64,000 bases of DNA from an uncultured delta proteobacterium (GTDB lineage Bacteria > Myxococcota > Myxococcia > SLRQ01), in assembly GCA_963727485.1 (NCBI GenBank), contig CAVSGM010000001.1, forward strand, positions 480,001 through 544,000. The letters are read 5' to 3'. Shown piece after piece: positions 345 through 8,333 of the stretch. A program made the translations under genes and the position numbers. The stretch's first letter is position 1. Every line of letters starts with the position of its first letter. Below the pieces are notes generated by a model. The model was not told where the DNA came from. It did no database searches and was given only the letters and a program-made list of their open reading frames with translations.

Positions 345-1685
345 TCAACCGGCGGGTGCCGGCGCCGGGGCGGCCGGGGGGCCGGGATCCCGGGGCGGAG
401 GCGCCGGGGCCGGCGCCCAGGGCGGGGCCGGGGCACCGGGGGACGCCGAGCCGGGCGCCGCCCCGGCCGCGGACGCCCCGCCGGACGCGGCGGTCGCCTC
501 GTCGGCGCTGGCCGCCTGCCGGAGCAGGAGCTGCTTCACCCGGTCGAAGCTCGCCTCGACCCGGCTCTTCCAGGCGTCGTCGACGCCCACCCGCTCCACC
601 GTGGCCCGGGTGCGCTCGTAGGCGGACATCGCCTTCTTCAGGAGCACCTGGATCCGGTCGTGGAGGAGCTTGCGGTAGGCGAGGCGCTCGGCGGGGTCGG
701 TGAGCGACGCCGGGGGCCGCGCCGCCGAGAGCTGGTCGTAGAGGATCTCGTAGAGCCGCCCCACCCGGTAGCCCGCCGCCGCCGCCCAGTGGGCCTCGCC
801 CATGCGGATGGTGCGCAGGTAGTGGCCCTGGGCCGAGAGCAGGAGCTCGGCCTTGTGCTCCAGGTCGGCCTTGAGGGCGTCGAGGCCCTCGGTCCCCGGG
901 TCGAAGGCGGCGTGCTCGAAGCGCAGGCGGTAGAGCTCGCCCAGGTAGAACTGCCCCTGCGCCGCGTAGTAGGGGTCGATGGCGGTGTCGTGCTGGTCCT
1001 TCTCGATGAGGTAGCGGCCCACCGCCCGGCGCAGGGCGGTCTCGGCGGCGTCGTCCCGGTCGCCGTGGAGCAGGCAGATGCCCTTCTGGACCTGGGCCCG
1101 CACGTAGATCTCCGGGGCGTCCTTGGCCCCGTCGGCGATCCGGGTGAGGAGCGCCGCGGCGTGGCCGTAGTCCTCGAGGTGGTAGAGGCACTCGGCCACC
1201 CGGAAGGCGCTGTCCCGCCACAGCTTCCCGGTGGCCGCGTCGAGGAGCGGCCGGTAGGCGTCGAGGGCCCGGAGGTACTCGCCCATCCGCTCCCAGGCGA
1301 GGCCGGCGTCGTAGCGCGCCTCGGGCCCCCGGTCGCTCTCGGGGAAGTCGCCGAGGATCCGGGTGAAGGCCCGGGCGGCCTTCTCGTAGTTCCCGGCGGC
1401 GTAGGCGGCGACCCCGACCTGGAAGAGCTCCTCGGCGTTCATCCCCACCAGCGCCATCTCGGGCTTGCCCCCGGCGCGGACGATCATCGGCCGGAGGTGG
1501 ACGTGGCGGACCTTGGCCTTGGCCGTGGTGGGCTTGCCGGAGAGGTGCGCGCAGCCCCCGAGGCCGGTGGCGAGGGCGAGGGCCCCGGCGAGGACCGCGC
1601 CGGCGCGCCGGCGGATCGGGCGGGGCCGGGGGGCGCCCCCGCGACCCGGGGCCGGTGTGCCCACCACGTCCATGGGCCCGCTCAT
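345..1685 (-). CDS. TPR-repeat lipoprotein
   Basis: Lipobox-like LATGLGGC; multiple TPR helices (AEELFQVGVAAYAAGNYEKA, EARYDAGLAWERMGEY); start overlaps stop of the upstream ArsA-like gene. Confidence 0.8.
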   Translation of the reverse strand: MSGPMDVVGTPAPGRGGAPRPRPIRRRAGAVLAGALALATGLGGCAHLSGKPTTAKAKVRHVHLRPMIVRAGGKPEMALVGMNAEELFQVGVAAYAAGNYEKAARAFTRILGDFPESDRGPEARYDAGLAWERMGEYLRALDAYRPLLDAATGKLWRDSAFRVAECLYHLEDYGHAAALLTRIADGAKDAPEIYVRAQVQKGICLLHGDRDDAAETALRRAVGRYLIEKDQHDTAIDPYYAAQGQFYLGELYRLRFEHAAFDPGTEGLDALKADLEHKAELLLSAQGHYLRTIRMGEAHWAAAAGYRVGRLYEILYDQLSAARPPASLTDPAERLAYRKLLHDRIQVLLKKAMSAYERTRATVERVGVDDAWKSRVEASFDRVKQLLLRQAASADEATAASGGASAAGAAPGSASPGAPAPPWAPAPAPPPRDPGPPAAPAPAPAG

Positions 1686-2863
1686 CCGCCGTCAGGTCCG
1701 GTGCCCGGGAGCGCCGCCGCCGGGAGGGCGCCGGTGCCCTCGAAGAGGTAGCCGCCCATCTCGGCGAGGCCCGCCAGGTCGTGGACGTCGCCGCCGAAGA
1801 TCGGCACCGCCCGGAGCAGGGTCGCCGGGTCCAGGGCCTCCCGGAGCGCGCCGATCTGGACCCCGTCGGCGGCGGCGAGGCGGAGCTGCTCGTCGACGGT
1901 TCCGGCGAGGCGGGCGGCGAGGTCGTCCCCGAAGGTCGGCGCCAGGGCCCCGGCCGAGAGGTCGGCGCCGCCGGTGGCCCGGCTCCAGTCGGGGTGGACC
2001 CGGTTGACCACCACCGTCCCCACCGGCATCTCGTTCTGGCGCAGCACCGTGTAGAAGTACCGGGCCTCGTCCATGGTCATTCCGCTGGGGGCGGTGACCA
2101 GGACGAAGGTGGTCTCGGCCGAGCCCAGAAGCGCCTTGACCGCCGCCGCCTGGTCCTTGAAGCCCTCGTACATCCCTCGCATGGTCAGGAGGAACTCGGC
2201 GAGGGCCTGGAGGGTCTCGAGGCCGGTGAACTTGGCGATCTGCCGGGCCACGTAGCCGCCGCCCAGCCCGATGGCCTTCATCCCCAGGCGCCCGGCGGCC
2301 ACCGCCGGGGTGGCGATCCACTTGAGGTTCTCGTTCCCGAAGGCGTCGAGGAGGCGGGTCGGCGCGTCGAGGAAGTCGAGGGCGTGGGCGGTGGGCGGGG
2401 TGTCGAGGACGATGACGTCGAAGTCGGTGCGCTCGTGGAGCTCGGCGAGCTTCTCCATCGCCATGTACTCCTGGCTGCCGGCGAGGACGGTGGAGAAGGT
2501 CTGGTAGAAGCGGTTCTGGAAGATGGTCTCCGCCTGCTCCCGGGTGGCGGCGTGGCGGGAGATCATGTCGTCGCTGGTGCGCTTGATGTCGAGCATCATC
2601 GCGTGGAGCTCGCCCTTGGGCTCGAGCCCCGCCCGGGCGAAGCGCTCGGCGCTGATCCGGGTGGCCACGTTCCCCAGGGTCTCGAGGCCCAGGCTGTTGG
2701 CGAGGCGGCGCGCCGGGTCGATGGTGACCACCAGGGCCCGCTGCCCCTCCAGGGCGGCCCGCACCGCCAGGGAGGCGGCGACGGTGGTCTTGCCCACCCC
2801 CCCGGAGCCCACGCAGACCACCAGGCGCCGGCCCTTGAGGACCCGGTCGAGGGCGTCGCTCAC
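1682..2863 (-). CDS. ArsA/Get3-family ATPase, subunit lacking the signature Lys
   Basis: GSGGVGKTT P-loop, switch I TIDPARRLA, switch II LDTPPTAH; GTG start at 2863 overlaps upstream TGA. Confidence 0.88.
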   Translation of the reverse strand: MSDALDRVLKGRRLVVCVGSGGVGKTTVAASLAVRAALEGQRALVVTIDPARRLANSLGLETLGNVATRISAERFARAGLEPKGELHAMMLDIKRTSDDMISRHAATREQAETIFQNRFYQTFSTVLAGSQEYMAMEKLAELHERTDFDVIVLDTPPTAHALDFLDAPTRLLDAFGNENLKWIATPAVAAGRLGMKAIGLGGGYVARQIAKFTGLETLQALAEFLLTMRGMYEGFKDQAAAVKALLGSAETTFVLVTAPSGMTMDEARYFYTVLRQNEMPVGTVVVNRVHPDWSRATGGADLSAGALAPTFGDDLAARLAGTVDEQLRLAAADGVQIGALREALDPATLLRAVPIFGGDVHDLAGLAEMGGYLFEGTGALPAAALPGTGPDGG

Positions 2864-3810
2864 GACGAAGCCTCCGGCCCCGGATCGAGGTGGCCGGCCA
2901 GCTCGCCCACCTGCGCCGGACCCCAGGTGGGGGTGTAGAGCCGGGGCAGGCGCACCAGCGGCAGCTCGGGGATCTCCAGCTCGAGCTTGCGGGCGTAGTG
3001 CTCGCTCATCTCCGCCCGCTCGGCCTGGTGGCGCCCGGCGGCGGCCGCGGCCCCGTCCCGGGTGAGGGTCCCGGCGCCGCCGCTGGGCACGGCCTGAAGG
3101 CGCGTCACCTCCTCGGCGGTGAAGCGCCGGGGGACGAAGCCGTTGAGGAAGAGCGACCCCAGCGGCAGCCCCAGGTCGTCGCGGATCGAGGCGTGGAGCT
3201 CCATGGTCTCGTTGATGGGCATCTCCTCGGGCAGCGACACCAGCTGCACGCTGGTCACCGAGGGGTCGATGAGGGTCCGGTGCATCCGCTCGGCGTCCTC
3301 GCGCATGGGCCCCGGGGGCACCGTGTCCATGATGACCTGGGGCACCCGGAGGAAGCTCAGCCCGTGACCGGTGGCCGGCGCGTCGAGGATGACCAGGTCC
3401 CACCGGGGGCGCCCGCCGTCCTCGGCGACCACCTCGAACCACACCTTGCCCAGCATCACCGTCTCGGCCAGCGAGGGGATCATCCGCAGGAAGGCCCGGA
3501 CCAGGCGGTTCTCGAAGACCGCGTCGTAGATGGTCTGGAACTTCAGCTTCATCAGCCCGTACTCGCGCATGGCCTCCTGGGGCCGGACGTTCACCGAGCT
3601 GATGCCCGGGACCACCTCGCCGACGGTGGTCCCCGGCGCCGGGCCCCCGAGGAGGCCGGGGATGCGCTCCTTGGTGTTGACCTCGCAGACCAGGACCTTC
3701 TTCCCCTGGCGGGCGGCCGCCAGGGCCAGGGCCGCCGAGAGGGTGGACTTGCCCACCCCGCCCTTCCCGGTGACGACGAGCAGGCGCTTGTGGAAGAGGT
3801 CCGTGGCCAC
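2860..3810 (-). CDS. ArsA/Get3-family ATPase, subunit with signature Lys but divergent switch I
   Basis: TGKGGVGKST, VLVCEVN in place of DPA, LDAPATGH, LPEEMPINET; GTG start at 3810. Confidence 0.88.
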   Translation of the reverse strand: MATDLFHKRLLVVTGKGGVGKSTLSAALALAAARQGKKVLVCEVNTKERIPGLLGGPAPGTTVGEVVPGISSVNVRPQEAMREYGLMKLKFQTIYDAVFENRLVRAFLRMIPSLAETVMLGKVWFEVVAEDGGRPRWDLVILDAPATGHGLSFLRVPQVIMDTVPPGPMREDAERMHRTLIDPSVTSVQLVSLPEEMPINETMELHASIRDDLGLPLGSLFLNGFVPRRFTAEEVTRLQAVPSGGAGTLTRDGAAAAAGRHQAERAEMSEHYARKLELEIPELPLVRLPRLYTPTWGPAQVGELAGHLDPGPEASS

Positions 3811-3817
3811 GTCGAAC

Positions 3818-3846
3818 TCGATAGCGGAGGCCCAGGAGGGGGTCAA
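3818..3846 (-). promoter_or_regulatory. Putative sigma70-type promoter of the ArsA-like operon, possibly leaderless
   Basis: On - strand TTGACC-17 nt-TATCGA, then 7 nt to the GTG start; no RBS. Confidence 0.35.
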
Positions 3847-3934
3847 TCGGCGAGGCGGCGGGACCGCCCTTGACGCGCCGCGTTCGCCGTAGGATACCCA
3901 CGCCACCCGGCGCTGCACGCCAAGGGGGACGCCA

Positions 3935-4300
3935 ATGCTCGAGCGAATCAAGGATCTCGGCGAGGACCAGGTGGGGAAGCTGGTGAGCGATCTGCTCAGC
4001 AATGAGCGCTTCATCGGCGCCATGCAGAACGTGATGATGCGCAGCCTGCGCACCCGCGAGCAGCTCGAGGCCATCGCCCGCTTCCTCCTGGGGACGCTGA
4101 ACATCCCCAGCAAGGCCGACCTCGACAAGGTCGCCGACAAGCTGGCCGGCCTCGACGAGCTCCTCGACGACGTCACCGAGAAGCTCGAGGCCATCGAGAA
4201 GCGCCTCCCGGCCGAGGGCGCGGCGAACAAGCCCGCCAAGGGCAAGTCCACGGGTCGCGGCGGGGCCAAGGGCGGCTCCGCCAACGCCGCCGAGGGCTAG
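3935..4300 (+). CDS. Phasin-like / PhaF-PhaE C-terminal-like coiled-coil protein
   Basis: LNIPSKADLDKVADKLAGLDELL resembles the L(N/G)(L/V)P(S/T)xx(E/D) motif plus leucine zipper of PhaF/PhaI and the PhaE C-terminus; Lys/Gly/Ala-rich tail; purine-rich RBS upstream. Confidence 0.55.
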   Translation: MLERIKDLGEDQVGKLVSDLLSNERFIGAMQNVMMRSLRTREQLEAIARFLLGTLNIPSKADLDKVADKLAGLDELLDDVTEKLEAIEKRLPAEGAANKPAKGKSTGRGGAKGGSANAAEG

Positions 4301-4307
4301 GCCCGCC

Positions 4308-5114
4308 ATGGCCACCGGGGCCGGCGCCCGCCGCATCGCCTTCATCAACGAGAAGGGCGGCACCTGCAAGACCACCCTGGCGGTCCACACCGCCGCGTGG
4401 CTGGCGGCCCACGATCCCGGGCGGGTGCTCCTCGTCGACCTCGACACCCAGGGCCACGCGGGCAAGAGCCTGGGCATCGACGTCCGGAGCCTCGACCGCA
4501 CCGTCGCCGACCTGATGGTCGACCCGGCCACCGACCCCGCCGAGGCCATCCTCGAGACCGGGATCGCCGGCCTCGATCTCCTCCCGGCGAACAAGCAGGC
4601 CGCCAATCTCCCCGAGCGCCTCGCCGGCCACGCCGACCGGCACCGCCGCCTCCGGCAGGTCATCGACCGGGTCGAGGCCGACCACGCCTATCGCTACGTG
4701 GTCTTCGACTCCCCGCCGTCGCTGGGGCTGACCACCCTCAACGTCATGGTCGCCGCCCACGAGGTGGTGGTCCCGGTGGCGCTGACCTACTTCGCCCTCG
4801 ACGGCTGCGCCGAGATCGTGAGCTCCGTGGAGGGCACCCGGGAGGCCCACGGGCACCCGGACCTCGAGGTCACCCTGGTGGTGCCCACCTTCCACCGGAG
4901 CACCCGGCTGGCCGACGAGGTCCTGGGCAAGCTCCGGGACTACTTCGGGGAGAAGGTCGGGCCGGTGCTCGGGTACAACGTCAAGATCGACGAGGCCCAG
5001 AGCCACGGGCAGACCATCTGGGAGTACGCGCCGTGGTCCCGGGGGGCCCAGATGCTCGAGGCGGTGGCCCGGTCGGTGAAGGCGACGCGGTCGGGGCGCC
5101 CCCCCGCTCCCTAG
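4308..5114 (+). CDS. Orphan ParA/Soj-family ATPase
   Basis: NEKGGTCKTT, VDLDTQG, FDSPPSLG, NVKIDEAQSHGQTIWEY; no parB nearby; 7 nt after the phasin-like gene. Confidence 0.9.
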   Translation: MATGAGARRIAFINEKGGTCKTTLAVHTAAWLAAHDPGRVLLVDLDTQGHAGKSLGIDVRSLDRTVADLMVDPATDPAEAILETGIAGLDLLPANKQAANLPERLAGHADRHRRLRQVIDRVEADHAYRYVVFDSPPSLGLTTLNVMVAAHEVVVPVALTYFALDGCAEIVSSVEGTREAHGHPDLEVTLVVPTFHRSTRLADEVLGKLRDYFGEKVGPVLGYNVKIDEAQSHGQTIWEYAPWSRGAQMLEAVARSVKATRSGRPPAP

Positions 5115-5126
5115 GTAGCCGGGGGC

Positions 5127-5843
5127 TCAGCCGCCGGCGCCGGTCTCGCCGTCGCCGTCGTCCTCGTCGTCGTCGAGGGCGGTGATCTTCTTCTCGATGT
5201 CGTCGAGGCGCGCCCGCAGGCCGATGAGGTCCTTGTGGAGGGCGGGGAGGCCGGTGACGCTCTGGAGGGTGTTCTGGAGCCGGTCGTCGACGTGGCGCTG
5301 CCAGTCCTGGACCCGGAGCTGCCACTGGTCGACGTTCTGCCGGAAGCCCTCGACGAGCTGCTTCAGGTAGGCCCGGGCCTCCTGCTCGGTGGGGGGCTCG
5401 GTGGGGGGCTCCGGCATGGGGATGTCCTGGAGGTCCCGGCGTCCGAACACCTTCTTGGGGATGCGCTCGGCGCCCTCGCGGATGGAGGCGACCCGGGGCT
5501 GGATCTCCCGCTCGAAGAAGTCCTGGAGGGTGCCACCGCCGTTGCGGACGATGTCCCGGAGGACCGCCAGGGGCATCCGCCCGGTCTTCTTCTCCTGCTC
5601 GAAGATGATCTGGGCCAGGGTGACCGAGGTGAGGTCTTCCTTGGTCCGGTTGTCGATGATCCGCACGTCCTCGCCGACGCGGATCATCTCGGCGATCTCC
5701 TCGAGGGTCACGTACCGGCTCTCGACGGTGTCGTAGAGCTTGCGGTTCGTGTACCGCTTGATGATCTTCACCGGGGGGGCTGAGCGGGCCTCAGCGCTGC
5801 TCCCGGCGGGCTTCTTCGCCGGCTCATCCTTGCCCTTGGACAT
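5127..5843 (-). CDS. phaR: PhaR-family polyhydroxyalkanoate synthesis regulator (DNA-binding domain + coiled coil)
   Basis: IIKRYTNRKLYDTVESRYVTLEEIAEMIRVGEDVRIIDNRTKEDLTSVTLAQIIFEQE matches the PhaR N-terminal domain. Confidence 0.85.
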   Translation of the reverse strand: MSKGKDEPAKKPAGSSAEARSAPPVKIIKRYTNRKLYDTVESRYVTLEEIAEMIRVGEDVRIIDNRTKEDLTSVTLAQIIFEQEKKTGRMPLAVLRDIVRNGGGTLQDFFEREIQPRVASIREGAERIPKKVFGRRDLQDIPMPEPPTEPPTEQEARAYLKQLVEGFRQNVDQWQLRVQDWQRHVDDRLQNTLQSVTGLPALHKDLIGLRARLDDIEKKITALDDDEDDGDGETGAGG

Positions 5844-5888
5844 CCCCTGGAACCTACCCGGTATTGACGCGATGCGCCAGCGGTATTG

Positions 5889-6314
5889 TCACCCGGTCGG
5901 GGGATCGCCGCCGTCCTCGAGCTCGCGGGTGAGGGCCTCGGCGAGCTCGTCGAGGATCGCCTCCCGGGTCGCCCGGGCCTCGGGATCCTGGGGATCTTCC
6001 CGGAGGCGGGCGCCTTCCACCAGGCGCAGGACCGCCTCGAAGGCCTCCCGGCGGGCGGCGGCGGCGCCGGTGGCCGCGGCGGGGCTCGCCGCCGGCGCCA
6101 GGAGGGCCAGGAGGGCCAGGCCCTGCTCCACCCGGGCCAGGGTCTGGTCGAGGGCGAGGCTCGCCGGGTCCGGCGCCGCGTCCCGGGCCGCCAGGGTGCC
6201 CCGGAGGACCTTCACCGCCGACTCCAGGCCGAGGGCCACCTCCCGGCCCGCGGCGCGGAGGTGATCGACCAGGGCGGCGACGGCCTCGGGGGGCAGGAGG
6301 GGGTCGGCTGGCAT
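5889..6314 (-). CDS. Hypothetical helical protein
   Basis: ATG at 6314; codon usage typical of the window; upstream of phaR on the same strand. Confidence 0.6.
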   Translation of the reverse strand: MPADPLLPPEAVAALVDHLRAAGREVALGLESAVKVLRGTLAARDAAPDPASLALDQTLARVEQGLALLALLAPAASPAAATGAAAARREAFEAVLRLVEGARLREDPQDPEARATREAILDELAEALTRELEDGGDPPTG

Positions 6315-6417
6315 CGACGCCGGTGCTAGCACAGCGGCCCGGCGCGGTAAATCGCCCGGATCCCGCCTTGCTTCCGGGCGTTTGGCACCCCGATAATGCC
6401 CAGCGGGTGCCGACCCG

Positions 6418-8333
6418 ATGATCGTCCAGTGCCACGGGTGCAAGACACGGTTCCGCATCGCGGACGACAAGGTCTCGGGACGCGGGGTGCGGGTCCGCTG
6501 CACCCGGTGCGGGGACACCTTCGTGGTCCGGCCCACCGACCCCGGCCCGGCGCCGCCCGCCGCGCCGCCCGCCGCGCCGCCCGCCGCGCCGCCCGGTGCC
6601 GCCTCCGACCCGGGCGCGGTGCCGCTCCCCGCGCCGCCGGCCTCGGCGGGGGACGGGATCGACTTCGACCTCGACGGCCCGCCGGACCCGCCGCCGCCCG
6701 CGGCCGCCGCGGCCCCTCCGGGCGCTTCGGGCGGGGTGGCCGACCTCTTCGGCGACCTCGACCTCGGCGGCGCCGACGGGGGCGCGGCACCCCTGGCGCA
6801 GGGGCGTGCCCCTGGGGGGAGCGCCTTCCCCGCCCCCTCGGAGGCCGACGTGGACGCGGCCCTCGCGGGCCTCGACGGGGGCTTCGGCAGTGACGTCTCC
6901 GCCGCCGACCTCGGCCTCTCCCCGGGCGAGGCCCTGAAGGCCCCTGGGGGGGCCGGAGCCGGCCCGGCGCCGCTCGACCTCGACGACGATCCCTACGACT
7001 TCGGCGCCGGTGGCGCGGCGGCGCCCTCCGGGGATCCGGCGCCGGCGGGCGAGCCCGACCTCTTCGGCGCCGGGGCCTCGGCCCCGGATCCCTTCGGCGC
7101 GGCCGGAGGCGAGCCCGACCCCTTCGGCGCCGGGGCCTCGGCCCCGGATCCCTTCGGCATGGCCGGAGGCGAGCCCGACCCCTTCGGCGCCGGGGCCTCG
7201 GCCCCGGATCCCTTCGGCGCGGCCGGAGGCGAGCCCGACCCCTTCGGCGCCGGGGCCCTCGCCCCGGATCCCCGGAGCCCTCCGGGGCGGGCACCGCGCC
7301 GGACCCGTTCGGTGGCGGCGACGGCGAGGCGGGCGGTGACATGGGCAGCGGCTGGGCCGCCGACGGCCCCCTCGAGCTCGACGGCGCCCCGGCCCCCGAC
7401 GACCCGGCGCCGGACCCCTTCGACCCCGGGGCCTCGGCCCTGGACGCGGGCGCGGGCGCGGCCGACGGGGAGCTCGAGCTGGATCTCGATCTCGGTGGGT
7501 CGCCGGACGCGGCTGCCCCCGCCGCCGGCGCGGCCCCGGAGGCCCTCGGCTTCGGCGACGACGACCCCTTCGCCACCCTCGACGCCGGTGCCGAGCTGGG
7601 CGGTGGCCCCGACCCCGACGGGGCGATGGCCGGCTTCGACCTCGGCGGGCCCCCGGCGGCGAGCTTCCCCGCCGCCTCCGAGGCCGCCTCGATCCCGGCC
7701 CCCGCCGCGCCGCCCCGGCCCCGGGCCCCGGCGGCCGCCCCCGCGGTCCCCCCCGACCCGGCGCCGGCGACGCCCCTGGCCTCGCCGCCCCGCAAGCGCG
7801 GCGGGGTGGCGGTGCTGGCCATCAACGGCCTCTTCGGCCTCGCCCTGGTGGCGCTCCTCCTCGGCGCCTTCGTCGCCTCCCGCACCGGCAGCCGCTTCAC
7901 CCCCTCGGTCTTCACCCCGGCCCGGCTCCGCGCGGCCTTCACCGGGGCCTCGGCGCCGGGCCTGGTGGTCACCCGCTTCTCCAACGGGCTCTACCCCACC
8001 CGCACCGGCGGCCAGGTCCTGGTGGTCAGGGGCGTGGCCACCAACAACGGCGACCAGGCGGCCCGCCCCGGGCGGGTCGAGGTGCGCCTCGTCGGTCCCG
8101 GCGGGAAGGTCGTCGCCTCCACCACCGGGGTGCTCGGGGCCGACCCCAGCGCCGCGGAGGTCTGGCGCCTCGACGGCGACGACGCGGCCCGGGCCCTGGT
8201 CCAGGCCCTGGGCAAGCGCGCCCCGGCGCAGGTGAAGGCCCACGCCCACGTCTCGTTCTTCGCGGTGATCCCCACCTGGCGTGGGGACCTCTCGGAGATG
8301 CGCTTCCAGGTGAAGGTCGAGGGCGCGGGATGA
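6418..8333 (+). CDS. MJ0042-type zinc-ribbon membrane protein with acidic disordered linker and DUF3426-like C-terminal domain (frameshift near 7270)
   Basis: CHGC...CTRC N-terminus; Asp/Pro/Gly linker; TM VAVLAINGLFGLALVALLLGAFVA; Ig-like LVVRGVATN; joined from ORFs 6418 and 7341. Confidence 0.8.
7048..7272 (+). repeat. 60-bp coding tandem repeat, about 3.7 copies (GEPDPFGAGASAPDPFGAAG)
   Basis: Sequence rows starting 7081, 7141 and 7201 are nearly identical. Confidence 0.95.

Follow-up and report, generated by a model that had tools for sequence, protein, structure and literature searches.

The 64,000-nt stretch of DNA analyzed here (the window) comes from the genome of an uncultured member of the Myxococcota (contig CAVSGM010000001.1, positions 480,001 to 544,000; source genome G000, 5.55 Mb and 93% complete). 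Near its start lies a compact cluster of five genes that encode a pair of BagA/BagB-like Get3/ArsA ATPases, a small phasin-like protein, an orphan ParA, and a PhaR-like regulator. These genes and their associated features, in window coordinates and with the corresponding Myxococcus xanthus (MXAN) genes, are the following.

345..1685 (−), tetratricopeptide repeat (TPR) lipoprotein gene, at the MXAN_5819 position and present in 32 of 40 relative loci
1682..2863 (−), BagB-like Get3/ArsA ATPase gene (393 aa, GTG start), MXAN_5818 by position
2860..3810 (−), BagA-like Get3/ArsA subunit gene (316 aa)
3811..3934, putative divergent promoter region, the 124-nt gap between bagA and the small gene
3871..3885, predicted PhaR operator TGACGCGCCGCGTTC (12.6 bits), overlapping the −35 element of the small-gene/parA promoter
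3935..4300 (+), small phasin-superfamily gene (121 aa), orthologue of MXAN_5816
4308..5114 (+), orphan ParA gene (268 aa), at the MXAN_5815 position
5127..5843 (−), PhaR-like gene (238 aa), at the MXAN_5814 position
5865..5879, predicted autoregulatory PhaR operator TGACGCGATGCGCCA (18.2 bits), 21 nt upstream of the phaR start

The strands, spacing, and identities of the five closely packed genes agreed with those put forward in an earlier reading of the same DNA (the original prediction). The bagA-like and bagB-like coding regions overlap by 4 nt, parA starts 7 nt after the small gene, and phaR converges on parA with the stops 12 nt apart; Pfam profiles matched the Get3 pair (PF02374, 110 and 84 bits), ParA (AAA_31, 131 bits), and the N-terminal DNA-binding domain of the PhaR-like protein (PF07879, 93.4 bits against a cut-off of 25). 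A 993-aa open reading frame (ORF) listed at bagB was rejected as upstream read-through that does not give the true extent of the gene. In addition, bagB overlaps the TPR lipoprotein gene by 4 nt, a point missed in the first reading; the leftward operon thus extends past bagB, and the TPR lipoprotein gene is probably the third member of the bagA-bagB operon. The M. xanthus annotation places MXAN_5814-5818 in the same order and orientation as the five genes of the window. The reported absence of phaC and parB from the window was also confirmed, the phaC-like genes sitting outside it at C1:653-663 kb and parB being found on C2 and C5 (C1, C2, C3, and C5 are contigs of G000), and no ars, phaA, or phaB gene was recognizable by eye among the called genes of the window, no profile search having been made. 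Back-to-back TTGAC(A) hexamers resembling −35 elements lie within the gap between bagA and the small gene and were seen in most of the relatives' copies (intergenic sequences of 28 loci); we infer that this gap is a divergent promoter. As a separate observation made by eye, bagA is possibly leaderless, with a TTGACC −35 element, 17-nt spacing, and a TATCGA hexamer ending 7 nt upstream of the GTG start (3811-3823); the bagA upstream regions of relatives, also inspected by eye, show a spacing similar to that of this TTGACC/TATCGA pair.

We give an even chance to the proposal that the cluster serves myxobacteria as a hub for the control and logistics of a hydrophobic storage inclusion, which is likely a lipid body and need not be polyhydroxyalkanoate (PHA), with no step by BagAB required. 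The synteny on which the original prediction depended held up across the phylum. Within a set of 301 genomes (given G numbers, with L numbers for fetched loci, f2, f3, f4, and f5 as family labels, and g11 as a genus label), a ParA orthologue was present in 179, from which 40 ParA-positive loci were chosen for spread. One genome flagged as unpublished, G185, enters the phylum-wide counts as a single row and supports none of the claims made here. PhaR was found in 37 of these loci, BagA and BagB in 36 each, and the small gene in 33, where the gap to parA was at most 55 nt in 31. All five genes stood together in 28 of the 40, and because of this co-location the arrangement is, on gene order, more than chance. 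By the same measure the five genes are part of a wider conserved block, since the flanking genes encoding the TPR lipoprotein, a Zn-ribbon protein, an LRV-repeat protein, a GDPD protein, and an M48 protease were seen in 32, 32, 26, 24, and 22 of the loci, counts that contig ends and the 19.5-kb span reduced in part. With weak paralogue matches counted in, 240 of the 301 genomes matched the small-gene profile. Among 20 small-gene loci, several of which stop at contig borders and 19 of which come from genomes without a ParA match, the adjoining genes were bagAB in 10 loci, phaR in 10, and parA in 1. The small gene thus occurred without ParA in 19 of these 20 loci, which were drawn mostly from genomes that lack ParA, and ParA without the small gene in 7 of the 40 ParA-picked loci; the two were lost independently, so that each is dispensable for the other. 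The usual flanks were all gone in L080, L085, and L088, where bagAB still adjoins the small gene, and a lipase-like hydrolase gene heads the bagA operon in L080, L082, L088, and L089. The Zn-ribbon/DUF3426-like gene that follows phaR in the window (6418-8333, +) looks like one frameshifted gene in which the GC content at third codon positions switches frame near 7300-7400; it is a single ORF of about 420-930 aa in several relatives, and an assembly indel is likely because a tandem repeat immediately precedes.

The link to storage inclusions comes from a predicted operator that the locus has in common with unlinked phasin genes. An unseeded palindromic expectation-maximization search of 37 phaR upstream regions returned the palindrome TGACGCAnTGCGTCA (objective 13.3, compared to 8.8-9.2 in five shuffles), for which 15 of the 37 regions score at least 10 bits; L074, whose start is mis-called, was excluded from motif training, L074, L077, and L079 were excluded from the control sets, and L241 was left unscored in the phasin-upstream count. 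The core of the motif fits the PhaR consensus reported for Sinorhizobium meliloti and Bradyrhizobium diazoefficiens, in passages that give it as NYGCRNYGCRN for S. meliloti (PMC12542648) and as the pattern GCN3GC (PMC10888616). When their own family was left out of training, the window sites at 5865-5879 and 3871-3885 scored 16.8 and 12.5 bits, respectively, and the former is the second best site of the whole genome. Sites of at least 14 bits in G000 number 37 intergenic and 7 coding, as opposed to 1-16 intergenic and 5-104 coding for eight permuted matrices. The best site of the genome, with a second copy alongside, is upstream of a phasin-like gene (C2:697243-697845, −; L212) whose 200-aa product ends in a Lys/Ala/Pro tail; this PhaF/HbhA-like protein could tether inclusions to the nucleoid without ParA. 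From 17 proteins that were scanned after being picked out of the 37 sites as likely metabolic, further predicted operators were identified upstream of fadI-fadJ, a long-chain acyl-CoA ligase/MaoC-type hydratase pair, pssA, a short-chain dehydrogenase/reductase gene, and a 2-oxoacid dehydrogenase E1 gene; many other sites of at least 14 bits precede genes without an evident lipid link. Two more operator-preceded loci were noted in passing. At C1:1097208-1097702 (+; L213), a 15.5-bit operator precedes the gene for a 164-aa helical protein with a Lys/Ala tail and no Pfam or NCBIfam match, possibly a further inclusion protein. A cluster at C3:391548-401933 (L214) encodes a crotonyl-CoA carboxylase/reductase-like protein, a CitE-type lyase, an acyl-CoA dehydrogenase, a MaoC hydratase, and a B12 mutase, and resembles an ethylmalonyl-CoA-type acetate pathway.

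The association of the operator with phasin genes was reproduced in loci outside the training set. Orthologues of the C2:697243-697845 phasin were matched in 18 of 30 genomes, and a site of at least 12 bits precedes the unlinked orthologue in 18 of 19 loci, compared to 0 of 199 control upstream regions; two of three further loci also have the site, for a total of 20 of 22. Ten of the genomes with an operator before the phasin gene have no phaC match (G058, G124, G018, G226, G289, G216, G151, G182, G258, and G042). A second gene, annotated at source as encoding a "phasin family protein," follows the orthologue in tandem in most relatives and was not found beside C2:697243-697845 in G000. The prediction is that the PhaR-type protein represses phasin genes by way of the palindrome that they have in common. 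It falls under the equivalog cut-off of TIGR01848 (89.6 bits compared to 109.45), and its C terminus is a helix-LP-coiled-coil module similar to the small protein; by analogy with known circuits, it is reasonably probable that PhaR senses a hydrophobic inclusion, its target, through this module and then releases the phasin genes.

The transcript levels of M. xanthus during development (RNA-Seq from 0 to 24 h, two replicates) are available in supplement file 11 of PMC6791715, the part of that study used here. Their size and their location after rpoC mark MXAN_3079 and MXAN_3080 as the likely phasin orthologues. In reads per kilobase per million, MXAN_3079 rises from 1111 to 6363 and from 1039 to 4939 (about 5- to 6-fold), MXAN_3080 from 412 to 1188 and from 352 to 923 (about 3-fold), and MXAN_5816, which has one missing point and failed the filter of the study, from 124 to 312 and from 69 to 247 (2.5- to 3.6-fold), and phaC (MXAN_6874) is flat near 50 throughout (PMC6791715). 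According to passages in PMC4048283, the lipid bodies of M. xanthus peak at 18 h of development.

The small protein of the window is itself only weakly phasin-like. It gave no PF05597 match in a profile search, and its scores against TIGR02132 (26 bits) and TIGR01837 (18.5 bits, cut-off 94.7) were far below the curated cut-offs; the phasin-like identity given to it originally is nevertheless seen in its family, of which 27 of 28 members match PF05597 and 27 of 28 match TIGR01837 at E ≤ 0.1. It has three N-terminal helices, an NLP hinge, a coiled coil, and a Lys/Ala/Gly tail, its structure model contains four helices (pLDDT 72), and the mean hydrophobic moments of the family are 0.2-0.46. In clustering at 90%, the L043 small protein groups with MXAN_5816. 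Fold searches with the small-protein and PhaR models gave no match at E ≤ 0.001, and the small-protein profile retrieved nothing but generic coiled coils from solved-structure sequences. When compared to the PhaR C terminus, the small protein gave an hhalign probability of 95.5% (E 1.4e-8) and an alignment score of 47.7, in contrast to at most 35.7 in 30 heptad shuffles and about 25 when reversed; the probability was just 22% once the coiled coil was removed. We regard the two as having a common module and not as proven orthologues. A second homologue of the small protein (88 aa, E 3e-7) is encoded directly behind an Hsp70-like gene at C2:238432-238698 (+).

The orphan ParA belongs to a distinct subfamily. 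Its signatures are NEKGG-T/S-C/G/A-KTT and DEAQSHG, and in a quick tree its clade is separate (SH-aLRT support 99) from chromosomal ParA and from sequences that we take to be PomZ-like. The chromosomal parAB of G000 is on C2, and no parB adjoins the window ParA. The EKGG and the signature/catalytic Lys of the deviant Walker A motif are invariant in 18 of 18 sequences. A 491-aa cluster member that might have been a fusion was instead antisense read-through, no dedicated search for fused forms having been made.

The original prediction of a lipid-linked orphan ParA was supported through a different partner from the one it named. In the deep-branching genome G303, a PF01553 (PlsC-like) acyltransferase gene comes after the parA orthologue, and bagAB-orf-phaR is beside another acyltransferase and an epimerase-like gene. 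An acyltransferase directly follows ParA in all 25 loci fetched from G303 and its relatives (29 of 41 genomes matched), and the small gene is beside ParA in none of the 25; these operons also contain etfAB and a patatin-like lipase, which fits neutral-lipid turnover. Among metagenome loci with at least 800 nt downstream, the acyltransferase comes after ParA in 44 of 57, and the small gene replaces it in 14 of 80 metagenome loci, both being present in none. Near the N terminus, 34 of 39 ParA-adjacent acyltransferases carry LGx[DN]P[FL], a peptide that resembles the ALGRGL start of ParB-type proteins, the N terminus of which activates the ParA ATPase. Just one of the 4572 called proteins of G000 has an LGxDPF-type motif in its first 20 residues, and it is an acyltransferase (C2:541802-543430; 542 aa, with a long low-complexity arm). 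The genomes sampled for co-occurrence are kin and not independent samples: of 26 ParA-positive genomes, 23 had a motif-bearing acyltransferase, 1 had an enzyme truncated at a contig end, and 2 yielded none, whereas among 30 ParA-negative genomes (absence rechecked by profile) a motif-bearing enzyme was present in 4, an enzyme without the motif in 8, and none was found in 18, for 9 of which the sole search used E ≤ 1e-60, close to where some true orthologues score. ParA and the peptide are both missing from G193 and G207, and G303 carries the peptide on another acyltransferase clade, the parA-adjacent one. In M. xanthus the likely orthologue is MXAN_4028, which lies two genes away from mutL, an arrangement also seen in G000. 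The acyltransferase N termini show no resemblance to the small protein or to phasins. We conclude that the partner of ParA is likely the unlinked acyltransferase rather than the small neighboring protein, that the LGxDPF peptide is quite probably an activator of ParA, and that the chances are evenly balanced, by analogy with other positioning ATPases, as to whether ParA spaces the acyltransferase or an inclusion over the nucleoid.

With regard to the cargo, genes for storage polymer and neutral-lipid synthases do exist elsewhere in the source genome, as anticipated: two phaC-like genes and one for a wax ester synthase/diacylglycerol acyltransferase (WS/DGAT). The PHA locus at C1:653-663 kb (L007), about 170 kb away, holds both phaC genes, which are class III-like, together with a second PhaR and a phasin-like ORF of 100 aa; there, ORF L007:15145-17199 merges a PhaE-like start with an AMP-binding enzyme, possibly via a frameshift. 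Across the 301 genomes, phaC-like genes were found in 116 (0 of 42 in f3, 0 of 5 in f4, 0 of 8 in f5, and 0 of 19 in g11) and WS/DGAT in 129. ParA is present in 34 of 42, 4 of 5, 4 of 8, and 18 of 19 genomes of f3, f4, f5, and g11, respectively. PHA, the cargo named by the original prediction, is an unlikely general one because the cluster persists in families where phaC was not found. G176, G170, and G151 have all five genes with neither phaC nor WS/DGAT found, the WS/DGAT negative coming from one search without a positive control and recurring for the same genomes in the phylum-wide search; a weak phaC match in G176 was rejected as PhaC on its GHSMGG serine motif. Passages in PMC4048283 describe that deletion of the single DGAT gene leaves triacylglycerol (TAG) in M. 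xanthus and state that the TAG-making enzymes are unknown. Lipid bodies therefore remain candidate cargo despite the missing synthases, because M. xanthus makes TAG without that DGAT.

The Get3 pair is homologous to BagA/BagB, with equivalogue status below the curated cut-offs: the BagB-like protein scores 316 bits against NF053621 (cut-off 521) and the BagA-like protein 121 bits against NF053622 (cut-off 400), and each subunit scores best with its own model. The nearest solved structure for the BagB-like protein is 6bs3_B (E 6e-61). The Asp of the TIDP switch has a role in ATPase catalysis. The window BagB retains the TIDPA switch and, in the family consensus, BagA reads CEVN where BagB has TIDP, so that BagA is likely the catalytically altered half of a BagA/BagB heterodimer. 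The BagB orthologous cluster contains M. xanthus ABF92732.1 (MXAN_5818 by position), presumably the motility gene agmR, which the literature search did not confirm. Identity with the arsenite pump ArsA was rejected; these are single-domain proteins that score 65 and 49 bits against TIGR04291, a 565-position tandem-domain model with a cut-off of 650. Two extra BagA/BagB pairs occur in G000 at C1:145.8-147.7 kb (L008) and C2:637-639 kb (L009), neither with a phasin neighbor or an operator of at least 9.5 bits and one beside TetR and epimerase-like genes. Actinobacterial bagAB neighbors are whiB/penicillin-binding-protein-size genes, NfeD, or a different ParA with an ftsZ paralogue, and never phasins. 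The last arrangement was seen in 22 loci among L120-L184 (e.g., L134:2330-7134; mainly Solirubrobacterales/Thermoleophilia), in which bagAB diverges from another orphan ParA (KGGVAKTT) with its P-loop Gly replaced, followed by the ftsZ paralogue and then a gamma-glutamyltransferase gene. These loci appear to be a second, independent BagAB/ParA pairing with a replaced P-loop Gly; that they represent the same system across phyla was rejected, their ParA grouping with a second Streptomyces ParA outside the window ParA clade. That the Get3 pair might load amphipathic proteins onto granules is suggested by synteny, and it is rather doubtful that BagAB handles a phasin. Background on BagAB was taken from passages and reference entries of PMC10597346, and the passages of PMC2963123 on ArsA homologues make no mention of phasins or polyhydroxyalkanoate.

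On these grounds we propose the following mechanism for a storage-inclusion hub. PhaR would act at the consensus palindrome that can be read in the sequence before phaR, over the small-gene/parA promoter, and before the unlinked phasin gene(s), fadIJ, the acyl-CoA ligase, and other acyl-CoA genes. By analogy with PhaR/PhaP, as inclusions form PhaR would shift onto them via its C-terminal phasin-like module, and the de-repressed phasins would coat the inclusion. The ParA subfamily travels, again as read in the sequence, with a PF01553 acyltransferase whose long disordered arm bears the ParB-like LGxDPF peptide; this peptide may dock on the nucleoid-bound ParA dimer and stimulate hydrolysis, so that the enzyme, and inclusions seeded or occupied by the acyltransferase, would be spaced over the nucleoid in the manner of McdA/McdB. 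In the weakest step, suggested by synteny, a BagA/BagB heterodimer might chaperone or extract amphipathic helices such as those of the small phasin-like protein.

Several observations weigh against this proposal. The flanking envelope genes are almost as conserved as the five, and the co-occurrence of ParA with the peptide was counted over related genomes. An operator of at least 10 bits over the small-gene promoter is present in 8 of 26 relatives (0 of 95 other TTGAC sites reach the threshold), all in f2 and none in f3 or f4. G176, assembled in one contig and 100% complete, has no site before phaR (3.8 bits) or before a phasin orthologue and no phaC or WS/DGAT that could be found, though it keeps all five genes and the peptide-bearing acyltransferase. 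The second PhaR at the PHA locus of G000 could read the same motif. For ParA, 27 of 39 sequences have Cys in place of the P-loop Gly that precedes Lys, and the DNA-binding surface is altered relative to Soj, one Soj Arg aligning to Ser198 and the other to Lys226, which is variable in the family; Arg197, one residue before a Soj Arg position, is invariant. The peptide is retained without ParA in G007, G147, G161, and G126, with parA cleanly gone from the locus in G161 and G126, and no operator of at least 9.5 bits precedes the acyltransferase in G000. The small gene was near bagAB in 0 of 66 further bagB loci (L120-L185, mostly actinobacterial), and phaR in one, a myxococcotal record. In the M. 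xanthus time course, expression of parA and bagAB is low and shifts by no more than about 2- to 3-fold, without passing the filters of the study, and MXAN_4028 is scored constitutive in the supplement of PMC6791715. The support overall is at the sequence and transcript level, and binding, localization, and the inclusion are all predicted.

Three other explanations were weighed. In the first, which we regard as unlikely, the genes are conserved backbone neighbors with separate jobs: BagAB would handle envelope proteins together with the TPR lipoprotein and the M48 protease, PhaR and the phasins would make up a carbon-flux regulon, and ParA would be a passenger of the block. The bagB/TPR overlap, the conservation of the flanks, the phasin-free surroundings of actinobacterial BagAB, and bagAB transcripts that are low and do not track the phasin peak are consistent with this view. 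However, a predicted PhaR operator lies inside the divergent promoter between bagA and the small gene, here and in the 8 relatives, bagAB stays by the small gene without the flanks (L080, L085, and L088) and is found by phaR and an acyltransferase in L161, and ParA co-occurs with a specific lipid-enzyme partner. In the second, a very unlikely explanation in our estimate, ParA positions the acyltransferase for membrane phospholipid remodeling at cell sites without an inclusion as cargo, and the PhaR-phasin regulon, while real, is tied to ParA by the shared promoter only. The PlsC-like family of the partner, its constitutive expression and lack of an operator, and the retention of ParA and the peptide in G176, where the regulon looks decayed, all point this way, whereas the position of parA, on the same strand as a phasin-like gene that ends 7 nt before it and is preceded by a predicted PhaR operator, the short gap conserved in 31 of 33 loci, and the etfAB and patatin-like lipase genes of the G303-lineage operons speak against it. 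The wiring of the original prediction, in which the small protein is a McdB-like adaptor for ParA-positioned PHA granules and the Get3 pair loads phasins, is highly improbable: the small gene does precede parA in 33 of 40 loci, its product has amphipathic-helix and coiled-coil anatomy, and G000 has two phaC-like genes, but ParA and the small gene were lost independently, the G303 group has the small gene beside ParA in no locus, ParA was found in the groups where phaC was not, and the M. xanthus phaC transcript is flat. Of that earlier proposal the storage link, the synteny, and the lipid-linked ParA are thus supported, and the adaptor role of the small protein, PHA as general cargo, and Get3 loading beyond synteny are not.

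A literature search found no description of such a system and MXAN_5814-5819 in the main text of no paper, most subscription papers being outside its reach, and genes 5814-5818 are unmentioned in the main text of a transposon preprint (10.64898/2026.08.28.747804). MXAN_3079, MXAN_3080, MXAN_5816, and MXAN_4028 become candidates for coating or making the lipid bodies of M. xanthus, for which the TAG enzymes are stated to be unknown in passages of PMC4048283. MXAN_5815 with the MXAN_4028 peptide is a candidate for ATP-driven inclusion positioning; a 2025 review (PMC13052382) states that ParA-type spacing is not known for polyhydroxybutyrate granules, lists nucleoid-tethering phasins only, and leaves the use of ATP open. 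The third question addressed is the cargo of bacterial BagAB-type Get3 pairs, and all three questions become named genes in a genetically tractable organism. The fullest version, an undescribed lipid-body organelle system with a PHA-synthase-free PhaR-phasin coat, ParA spacing via an LGxDPF acyltransferase that is the missing TAG-route enzyme, and BagA/BagB as phasin chaperone, is decidedly unlikely to be right in every part; if it were, a storage inclusion positioned with ATP and a client of bacterial BagAB would each be described for the first time. Even the minimal outcome, a PhaR-phasin regulon conserved where a PHA synthase was not found, alters the view of PhaR sensing.

The proteins of the cluster fall, by score, outside TIGR01848 PhaR, PF05597 phasins, and the BagA/BagB equivalogues, and each part of the system can be set beside a known one. 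Mycobacterial BagA/BagB (Rv3679/Rv3680) has the same overlapping bagA-bagB order and provides the top NCBIfam and PDB matches; there the neighbor is whiB, whereas here the neighbors are phasin-like, PhaR, and lipase-like genes and two further pairs occur elsewhere in the genome. The PhaF/PhaI phasins of Pseudomonas (PF05597, TIGR01837) are similar in their helix-hinge-coiled-coil module, in the regulon member with a Lys/Ala/Pro tail, and in the tandem second phasin of relatives, but the matches here are below cut-off, control is by a predicted PhaR operator, and there is no neighboring class II phaC. The PhaR (AniA)/PhaP circuit of alpha- and beta-proteobacteria is matched by the PF07879 domain, by the operator core YGCRNYGCR, by sites, predicted here, before phaR and (often doubled) before phasin genes, and by wider carbon-metabolism targets. 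It differs in that the protein here is below the TIGR01848 cut-off, has no match to the second PhaR domain, and ends in a phasin-like helix-LP-coiled coil, and in that the operator arms are TGAC/GTCA instead of AT-rich and are kept in lineages where phaC was not found. PomXYZ and ParC are other ParA/MinD-type positioning systems to which this ParA was likened. McdA/McdB carboxysome positioning likewise combines an orphan ParA with a partner bearing a short N-terminal peptide on a disordered arm, as the candidate partner does here; that candidate is, in contrast, a PF01553 enzyme, encoded away from parA in this class and next to it in a deeper lineage, and a lipid inclusion or its enzyme would take the place of the carboxysome as cargo. 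As a whole, the system would resemble a PhaR/PhaP circuit joined to a McdAB-type positioner.

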